64,000 bases of DNA from the NCBI GenBank assembly GCA_951406725.2, contig OX597819.1, positions 4,278,001 through 4,342,000 on the forward strand. Direction: 5' to 3'. Positions 21,451-23,285 of this stretch are shown piece by piece (the stretch's first letter is position 1; each line of letters starts with the position of its first letter). Source of the stretch: Octopus vulgaris. Taxonomy: Eukaryota. The translations under genes and the position numbers were made by a program. Below the pieces are notes generated by a model. The model was not told where the DNA came from. It worked only from the letters and a program-made list of their open reading frames with translations, and ran no database searches.

Positions 21451-21628
21451 TATATATATATATATATATATATATATATATATATATATATATGCATATA
21501 ATTTATATATAGAGGGCATTATTATACATACATGCCACACGCTAAGAGGGACAATTAGTCATTTCTACCAAAAATTTTACTAATCCCACCGAATGCAATT
21601 TTTCAAAGTAAGACATTTAAAAATATAG

Positions 21629-21673
21629 ACTTGTATCACCTGTGATTTCATACCTCTGTATTCATCAGCAAGC
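21629..21673 (-). ncRNA. Type I hammerhead ribozyme, family B
   Basis: Reverse complement of 22281-22325. Confidence 0.85.
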
Positions 21674-22280
21674 CTGAACGTATCATAAATAAACGACCCT
21701 ACCTCGTCTAAGCCGAGCAGCTAACTGATCAACATCAACGAAGCACATAGGTGAGTTTATATATATTACATCCGGTAAATGGCAGACTTTTACGAATTGC
21801 ATTTCGGGAAAAAGAAAAGTTTTTTCGGAATAAAAATTTAGCAATTAAGGACAACTTCTTAATAAGGAAAACTTAACAAGAAATTATCAGGTAGATAGCG
21901 TGAAAGACCTCATAAGAGAAAAAATTTCGAAAATAATTCTTTCTTATTGAACATGCGTGTGGCATGTATGTATAATAATGCCCTCTATATATAAATTAAT
22001 ATGTTCAATAAGAAAGAATTATTTTCGAAATTTTTTCTCTTATGAGGTCTTTCACGCTATCTACCTGATAATTTCTTGTTAAGTTTTCCTTATTAAGAAG
22101 TTGTCCTTAATTGCTAAATTTTTATTCCGAAAAAACTTTTCTTTTCCCGAAATGCAATTCGTAAAAGTCTGCCATTTACCGGATGTAATATATATAAACT
22201 CACCCATGTGCTTCGTTGATGTTGATCAGTTAGCTGCTCGGCTTAGACTAGGTAGGGTCGTTTATTTATGATACGTTCAG

Positions 22281-22325
22281 GCTTGCTGATGAATACAGAG
22301 GTATGAAATCACAGGTGATACAAGT
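22281..22325 (+). ncRNA. Type I hammerhead ribozyme, family B
   Basis: GCTTG-CTGATGA-ATAC-AGAG-GTAT-GAAA-TCAC-AG-GTGA-TA-CAAGT; predicted cut after A22320. Confidence 0.88.
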
Positions 22326-23052
22326 CTATATTTTTAAATGTCTTACTTTGAAAAATGGCATTCGGTGGGATTAGTAAAATTTTTGGTAGAAATGACTAAT
22401 TGTCCCTCTTAGCGTGTGGCATGTATGTATAATAATGCCCTCTATATATAAATTAATATGTTCAATAAGAAAGAATTATTTTCGAAATTTTTTCTCTTGT
22501 GAGGTCTTTCACGCTATCTACCTGATAATTTCTTGTTAAGTTTTCCTTATTAAGAAGTTGTCCTTAATTGCTAAATTTTATATATATATATATATATATA
22601 TATATATATATATATATATATATATATATATACATATATACATATATACATATATATACATATATATAATATATATATATATATATATATATATATATAT
22701 ATATATATATATATATATATATATATATATATATATATATATATATATATATATATATATATATATATATATATATATATATATATATATAAAATTATTT
22801 AACAATTAAGGATAACTTCTTAATAAGGAATCTTAACAAGAAATTATCAGGTAGATAGCGTGAAAGACCTCATAAGAGAAAAAATTTCGAAAATAATTCT
22901 TTCTTATTGAACATATTAATTTATATATAGAGGGCATTATTATACATACATGCCACACGCTAAGAGGGACATTAGTCATTTCTACCCAAAAATTTTACTA
23001 ATCATACCGAATGCAATTTTTCAAAGCAAGACATTTAAAAAATGAATTTAGT

Positions 23053-23108
23053 ATTGTATCACCTGTGATTTCGTACTTACCGCAGTTGCGACCGTACTCA
23101 TCAGCAAG
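23053..23108 (-). ncRNA. Type I hammerhead ribozyme, family B variant
   Basis: CTTG-CTGATGA-GTAC-GGTCGCAACTGCGGTAA-GTAC-GAAA-TCACAGGTGA-TA-CAAT. Confidence 0.85.
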
Positions 23109-23285
23109 ACTGATTCTGAACATATCATAAATAAACGACCCGATATATATATATATATATATATATATATATATATATATATATATATATATATATATAT
23201 ATATATATATATATATATATATATATATATATATATATATATATATATATATATATATATATATATATATATATATATATATATA

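Follow-up and report, generated by a model that had tools for sequence, protein, structure and literature searches.

Non-LTR retrozymes of metazoans have been described with units of 220-245 nt in coral, 350-390 nt in mussel and 330/350 nt in axolotl, with Penelope-like elements (PLEs) named as their likely helpers (Cervera and de la Pena 2020, PMC7229834). A recent survey of 31 vertebrates, 3 insects and a coral, which rests on co-occurrence and on homology to the PLE pseudo-LTRs (pLTRs), describes animal retrozymes as non-autonomous pLTR derivatives and requires two consecutive hammerhead units for an "active" retrozyme; eight of nine Xenopus dimers were uncleaved (Li, Clavereau and Pollet 2026, bioRxiv 10.64898/2026.07.22.740005). 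Craig et al. 2021 (PMC8557442) portray PLE insertions themselves as partial tandems in (TA)n targets, tailed at one end and accompanied by an inverted copy that is truncated at its 5' end. Frangieh et al. 2024 (PMC11167929) place two internal reverse transcriptase (RT) start sites at a stem-loop, and the tail is what lies between them. For one PLE studied in vitro, cleavage was unneeded and uncleaved RNA was the main template (PMC11167929). Minimal dimeric hammerheads occur in pLTRs, and circular PLE templates have already been proposed (Cervera and de la Pena 2014, PMC4209133); the same ground is reviewed in PMC7761336. Mobilization of animal retrozymes by PLEs has previously been argued from co-occurrence and sequence kinship.

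Here, we compare with these systems a repeat cluster in a 64-kb stretch of Octopus vulgaris DNA, henceforth termed the window. Its 457-nt unit resembles the metazoan non-LTR retrozymes, as the cited sections of PMC7229834 portray them, in being a non-coding sequence of a few hundred bases with a GC content below 50% and one type I hammerhead per unit, in showing no LTR, PBS or PPT, in a sense strand predicted to be self-paired, and in the presence of PLE remnants in the genome. It differs from them in a length at or just above the 150-450 range, in that no two-hammerhead array is seen, in a helix III exceeding the 2-bp invertebrate norm, in a core predicted to be sequestered, which those sections say of some mussel circles only, and in an insertion with an inverted arm, a tail and a TA target where the retrozymes of that work have TSDs (PMC7229834). 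With the retrozymes of Li et al. it shares the proposed origin and helper and a length within 51-972 bp, and monomers and partial copies are common there; unlike an "active" element in their sense, the octopus locus holds no two consecutive hammerhead units, and its PLE link comes from insertion anatomy (10.64898/2026.07.22.740005).

We therefore regard the 457-nt unit as likely to be a new family of the known animal retrozymes, with putative cleavage and putative circles; this membership is likely but incomplete, because it draws on the features that can be tested in sequence. The kind of element is already known, so the surprise is moderate; what the octopus locus adds is that a unit with a complete hammerhead and no ORF bears the footprint of a PLE insertion, namely an inverted arm, a pair of start sites and a TA target. 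The literature searched yielded no cephalopod retrozyme, and supplements, subscription papers, Repbase or Dfam could list one. Our main reading, to which we assign a probability of roughly 0.5, is that the unit is a non-coding PLE passenger, i.e., a non-LTR retrozyme, copied into TA microsatellites from circular RNA. That it belongs to a non-autonomous, PLE-dependent family, counting cycles through circular and through linear RNA together, appears quite probable.

Three arms of a 457-nt unit in a TA microsatellite

The cluster consists of three arms of the 457-nt repeat, all adjoining a (TA)n microsatellite (Table 1; unit coordinates, u, are window positions minus 21954). A preliminary description, made from the letters of the window, had reported an ORF-less unit of this length, an arm 2 of about 1.37 units with the limits in Table 1, and a cluster sitting in (TA)n. 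All three points hold: BLAST confirms the period and the extent of arm 2 (625 nt, its repeated 168 nt being 99% identical), the longest stop-to-stop frame measures 62 aa and the longest Met frame 42 aa when the unit is read as a circle, and none of the six frames of arm 2 has a Pfam match. Kinship with metazoan non-LTR retrozymes, also suggested there, is supported as well. A GIY-YIG-like peptide in one unit frame was dropped, without Pfam support. BLAST and nhmmer found no further relatives of the unit within the 64-kb window.

Table 1. Coordinates of the arms, motifs and hairpins of the octopus cluster and of a second PLE-end family in the window.
Feature	Position	Strand	Evidence or remark
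(TA)n target, 3' end of arm 1	21445..21497	.	
Arm 1, inverted, ~1.00 unit, u47-457 then u1-44/49	21498..21954 (3' limit 21499/21495)	-	BLAST and pairwise alignment
Arm 2, 1.37 units, u1-457 then u1-168	21955..22579	+	Local BLAST and pairwise alignment
Single 457-nt period, 33% GC	21955..22411	+	
(TA)n between 3' ends of arms 2 and 3	22579..22791	.	
Arm 3, 5'-truncated, u301-457 then u1-165	22791..23141 (3' limit ~22797/22789)	-	BLAST and alignment
(TA)n at truncated 5' end of arm 3	23143..23285	.	
Type I hammerhead motif, arm 1, predicted cut after 21634	21627..21675	-	Identical to arm 2 motif
Type I hammerhead motif, arm 2, predicted cut after A22320 (AUA; u366)	22279..22327	+	
Hammerhead variant, arm 3, helices I and II longer, predicted cut after 23057	23044..23116	-	
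16-bp AU-rich tail hairpin, u113-151	22067..22105	+	0/200 shuffles as stable
Tail hairpin, arm 1 copy	21850..21888	-	z -4.7
Tail hairpin, second arm 2 copy, 17 nt before 3' end	22524..22562	+	z -5.1
Tail hairpin, arm 3 copy	22811..22848	-	z -5.2
Second PLE-end family, head-to-head arms in (TA)n	21164-21450 and 25319-25721		

Arms 1 and 2, which differ by three substitutions and one internal insertion in a pairwise alignment, meet 5' end to 5' end at a clean junction (21954/21955) without microhomology, and we infer that they represent a single head-to-head insertion event. Arm 3, with 87% overall identity to the unit, is an independent 5'-truncated insertion from a different subfamily. The 5' ends differ among the arms, lying at u1 in arm 2, u47 in arm 1 and u301 in arm 3. 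If arms 1 and 2 (21499-22455) were transcribed through from either side, the RNA would form a duplex of about 410 bp closed by a 46-nt loop, a possible substrate for editing or small RNAs.

Insertion ends and the Penelope-like footprint

The 3' ends fall at two sites. Site B (u165-168) is the 3' end of arms 2 and 3, and site A (u44-49), which rests on one copy, is the 3' end of arm 1; a contig of the public run X1 changes strand at 22122, which is u168 and thereby the site B base. The sites lie about 120 nt apart and bracket a 16-bp hairpin that beats 200 of 200 shuffles in all four copies. One of its pairs (22069:22103) is U-G in the unit, U-A in arm 3 and C-G in the commonest variant of runs X1 and X4, and a common contig variant, 22098 A>T, disrupts another single pair. 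We infer that it is a candidate RT recognition element.

Two of the PLE-type features, the partial tandem and the inverted 5'-truncated copy, are found here as arms 1 and 2, and the arms lie in an AT-rich or (TA)n target without a clear TSD. Because this layout fits the published PLE footprint, we attribute arms 1 and 2 to a single PLE-type event, regard arm 3 as a truncated copy of separate origin, and see no free permutation. The preliminary description had called the unit tandem and circularly permuted. The partial tandem stands in arm 2, whereas free permutation does not, the 3' ends being fixed at two sites while the 5' ends vary. Arm 3, once taken for a third permutation, is shorter than one unit and ends at site B like arm 2, a coincidence of ends that had been noticed correctly, so that it is better described as a 5'-truncated copy. 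The proposal that PLE machinery retroposed the unit into (TA)n is supported by the PLE-type layout and seems probable.

A comparison with pLTR insertions of Penelope/Poseidon, Neptune and Hydra extends the likeness: these share the partial tandem, the inverted 5'-truncated copy, the one-end tail and the microsatellite target, and they too carry a hammerhead upstream of the RT start sites and a stem-loop at the start region, according to the cited parts of PMC8557442 and PMC11167929. The octopus unit departs from them in lacking an ORF, in a tail of about 120 nt where theirs span 30-40, and in a hammerhead that is full-size instead of minimal (PMC8557442, PMC11167929). Non-autonomous Chlamys elements (e.g., MRC1) are, in the sections cited, mostly without hammerheads, unlike the octopus unit (PMC8557442).

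The window holds a second PLE-end family with the same head-to-head design in (TA)n. Its copy at 25 kb has perfect arms of 162 nt, both of which bear a type I hammerhead of the minimal type (25586 on the plus strand, 25530 on the minus strand); the family shows two 3' ends about 80-85 nt apart, one arm per copy carrying the extra tail, and a 13-bp tail hairpin with z-scores of -2.2 and -1.9. A short likeness between its sequence and the tail of the 457-nt unit was taken as chance, and blastn and nhmmer missed it.

That an unrelated family displays this layout twice in the window speaks against an origin at the DNA level, by satellite amplification or fold-back inversion, and against an inversion of arms 1 and 2 introduced during assembly. 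Assembly is difficult where AT-rich inverted repeats adjoin microsatellites (PMC8557442, in the part cited), and the 21954/21955 junction is absent from the joints listed for four runs, as such an artefact would have it. Yet arms 1 and 2 differ at four internal places and in their 3' ends, the divergent arm 3 shares a 3' end, and the RNA structure bears a selection-like pattern, described below. We consider these explanations highly improbable.

The hammerhead motif, its variation and its predicted folding

With a descriptor demanding at least 4 bp in helix I, at least 4 bp in helix II and at least 3 bp in helix III, one type I core (CTGATGA...GAAA...TA) was found in each of the three arms, at 21668 and 23104 on the minus strand and 22286 on the plus strand. 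The preliminary description had likewise counted one hammerhead per arm, none of them with two on the same strand, and had predicted cleavage after A22320, which is also the site given by the descriptor; two same-strand hammerheads are absent from every arm at the locus, arm 2 with its 1.37 units having a single motif. The descriptor matched none of 20,000 Markov sequences modelled on the unit and nothing in 100 simulations of window size, and relaxing helix I to 3 bp gave five matches in the window, namely the three arms and two arms of another repeat. Rfam leaves the motif of arms 1 and 2 unrecognized, and the match of arm 3 to RF00163 reaches 14 bits, below the gathering score of 34, so the hammerhead call rests on the descriptor together with the variation. 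Searched against the whole window and the cluster, Rfam returned only microsatellite and inverted-repeat look-alikes. The features of plant LTR retrozymes, a type III hammerhead in LTRs with a PBS, a PPT and a 4-bp TSD, are not seen: the motif is of type I, with helix I open, and the flanks are (TA)n. Core-like words at 61350 and 59752 (minus strand, within 59500-61500), 55512 (plus) and 36281 (minus) fail the helix descriptor; the region at 59.5-61.5 kb, without a Pfam match, may be a strongly decayed retroelement.

Substitutions in arm 3 are concentrated near the motif, with 7 in the 54 nt round it versus 8 in the remaining 274 nt (Fisher p 0.005), and none falls on the 11 core bases or in helix III (p 0.18 for the core alone, p 0.02 for both together). 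In helix II the first pair, A-U, has become G-C, and an insertion of 13 nt is predicted to fold so as to lengthen this helix; insertions of 6 and 5 nt on opposite strands of helix I together add 4 bp. These structure-keeping changes round an unchanged core suggest selection on the folded ribozyme. Among public contigs, four variants are listed for 22286-22320: they affect the free core position 7, two helix II bases, which then form G-U pairs, and loop II. Summed contig depth falls over 22243-22322, which we do not count as a finding, and loose contig ends at 22245 and 22315 have flanks that are homologous but altered.

Arms 1 and 2 have a helix I of 7 bp, as initially described, a helix II of 4 bp and a near-palindromic helix III. 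The 5 bp originally assigned to helix III cannot form in a single strand because the loop would be 2 nt; a monomer can form 4 bp with a 4-nt loop. This helix had been described as stable, which does not imply activity of the monomer. In the isolated motif, an alternative helix that pairs the core with helix III is predicted in both variants at a probability of about 0.95, with that of helix III near zero, so that the core would be sequestered. The single-hammerhead fold is predicted to lie above the minimum by 5.0 kcal/mol in the arm 2 fragment, 7.1 kcal/mol in the arm 3 fragment and 3.4 kcal/mol in the circle or in arm 2. Folding models omit non-standard core pairs and loop contacts. Given this omission, monomer activity may still occur.

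Pairing between copies is a conceivable way out. Two 56-nt arm 2 fragments are predicted to cofold, unconstrained, as a double hammerhead (-27.2 vs -22.6 for two monomers). For longer RNAs, which were compared by minimum energies, the double-hammerhead fold ties the minimum in a 537-nt two-motif transcript and lies above it by 7.2 kcal/mol in a 620-nt and by 3.3 in a 758-nt transcript; for arm 3 the dimer fold is unfavoured. As in the double hammerheads of newt and axolotl satellite 2 and in the minimal ones of PLEs, the near-palindromic helix III can pair between copies; unlike in those, a 4-bp monomer helix III is possible, and the dimer fold is predicted in some contexts only (PMC4209133, PMC7229834, in the sections cited). 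We treat a dimer-dependent switch of the hammerhead, which these models would permit, as a lead and not as a result. The sense circle is predicted to be 67% paired (z -2.9, 0/60 shuffles as stable), the tail hairpin contributing part of this, while the antisense circle scores z -0.8.

Repeated family, possible templates and neighbouring elements

Words of the unit are present in 20 public runs from 11 studies, and four of the runs were aligned (X10 and X17, whose RNA origin is a guess, serve here for sequence continuity, not expression). In X1 and X4, which carry two organism labels, 3514 and 1348 contigs cover 29 of 29 bins. These data bear on the possibility that the arms are 5'-truncated ends of an autonomous PLE, in which case the u168/169 join would be private to this locus and most copies would continue to an RT/GIY-YIG ORF. 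Such an element would explain the fixed 3' ends and the PLE layout; moreover, arms 1 and 2 share one event, so that the join is not independently attested, arm 3 falls short of it, and none of the 32 listed pieces (of 5047) bridges u168/169 with 31 letters on each side. On the other hand, summed contig depth, which we do not convert to copy number, is unbroken across the join: the u168/169 bin reaches 571k in X1 (neighbours 490k and 597k) and 577k in X4 (743k and 457k). The join is crossed by three pieces out of the 32 listed, with a short side of 12-19 letters (X17 21986-22141, X10 22105-22248 and X10 22095-22134), and they come from other studies than X1 and X4. No loose end lies at 22122/22123 among the 24 listed of 169, the six frames hold no coding remnant, no related sequence occurs elsewhere in the window, and no RT/GIY-YIG ORF is found within or attached to any arm. 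We judge an autonomous pLTR origin of this kind quite improbable. The outcome that would have spoken against a retrozyme in the preliminary description, copies always tied to a PLE ORF, likewise looks unlikely from these contigs.

The unit thus represents a much-repeated family, which appears to lack an ORF and to close on itself. A joint from 22411 to 21955, present in all four runs, lies within the natural frame of the element and is not counted as tandem evidence, and short contigs cannot reveal dimers. A rare autonomous partner branching from the 457-nt family is possible. In addition, the readings as pLTR and as retrozyme are compatible, since published work regards animal retrozymes as derivatives of pLTRs that are themselves non-autonomous elements. 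Two short family patterns gave no match in metagenome, viral or prokaryote genome contigs.

As all three arms cross the cut site intact, the template should have been a circle or an uncleaved RNA longer than one unit, and not a cleaved linear monomer. This narrows the earlier suggestion that a monomer or circle was retroposed: a cleaved linear monomer drops out, whereas a circle fits, as does uncleaved RNA. Arm 1 begins (u47) where it ends (u44-49), so it spans one lap, a single post-hoc observation. One lap fits an RT stalling at its own start on a circle; a linear RNA from u47 combined with a template jump predicts the same. With its end at site B, a source with two motifs needs about 758 nt, and arm 2, with 625, is shorter, so the locus alone could not release a monomer.

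A linear cycle without circles would run through an uncleaved, terminally redundant RNA (from about u47 round to u168) that depends equally on a PLE. Arm 1 would then be a full copy from site A, with u47 as the point where the RNA begins. Arm 2 would be a partial tandem of the usual PLE kind, a full copy from site B followed by a template jump onto a second RNA at its site A. The hammerhead would cleave slowly, depend on protein or be no more than a legacy of the parent pLTR. Consistent with this, uncleaved RNA serves PAc in transposition, and the PAc hammerhead requires protein (PMC11167929, in the sections cited), the lone motif is predicted to misfold, and copies with two hammerheads are unseen at the locus. 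Against it stand the structure-keeping changes round the unchanged core of arm 3, which suggest selection on the ribozyme, the full helix III and 4-bp helix II, unlike the minimal metazoan PLE hammerheads (PMC4209133, in the part cited), and the need for a template jump to restore the 457 period to the base. We view a purely linear cycle as possible though on balance doubtful. Once genomic copies are grouped by start site, circular and linear templates predict different peaks for their 5' ends.

Under the favoured copying from circular RNA, a source locus with two hammerheads, and thus some 760 nt or more in length, would be transcribed through, and both hammerheads would cut after u366, possibly aided by the double-hammerhead fold. 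The released monomer would be ligated into a circle, where the core may be mostly sequestered. A PLE protein would bind near the tail hairpin and nick (TA)n, and reverse transcription would start at either of the two sites, A (u44-49) or B (u165-168). The cDNAs from the two DNA ends, of one lap (arm 1) and 1.37 laps (arm 2), would be joined head to head, and arm 3 would be an independent truncated insertion of another subfamily.

A bolder version would make the unit a very abundant, viroid-sized RNA circle of octopods. Its hammerhead would be inactive in monomers and become active only when a transcript holds two units, and the periphery of the ribozyme would change more quickly than other parts of the unit. 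A PLE RT would copy the circle round from two fixed start sites by the hairpin, with a preference for stopping after exactly one lap. This fuller picture is speculative and, taken as a whole, rather unlikely. If it were true, genomic copies would record base by base the use of circular templates by PLEs, which was proposed before but not demonstrated.

The elements around the cluster are of several kinds. PLEs are represented in the window by a decayed frame with the DKG motif and by the PLE-end family with minimal hammerheads, neither linked to the unit, and no partner PLE for the unit was found within the window. An open LINE-type RT frame of 333 aa (23501-24499, plus strand; Pfam RVT_1) is separate from the unit. 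Among the 120 matches listed, its close named relatives belong to Argonauta hians (65%) and to an Octopus entry (69%, covering half of the query); one unnamed protein reaches 76%, and the other listed matches 45-53%. These relatives make an octopod host likely. Although the frame lies 360 nt from arm 3, it was rejected as a partner: it is on the opposite strand, (TA)n and DNA of no relation to either lie in between, and PLE motifs were not seen in it. A short, GC-richer repeat after the TA run (23287-23500) resembles octopus tRNA-derived SINEs; ARAGORN reports 0 tRNAs in the window. Similar decayed frames at 4219-5375 and 17236-17712 look like pieces of L1/Tx1-type LINEs, and the two frames scanned with Pfam from these regions gave no match.

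Decayed PLE-like RT frames at 26069-27550, with the PLE DKG motif at 26.9-27.5 kb, follow an inverted repeat of 139 nt that encloses a TA run (26081-26364); these frames have no Pfam match, and their nearest ESM Atlas clusters carry DUF8422 in 28-55% of members. A broken LINE lies at 35565-39234 on the minus strand; Pfam places RVT_1 at 37830-38483 in it and matches zf-RVT weakly at 36911-37378.
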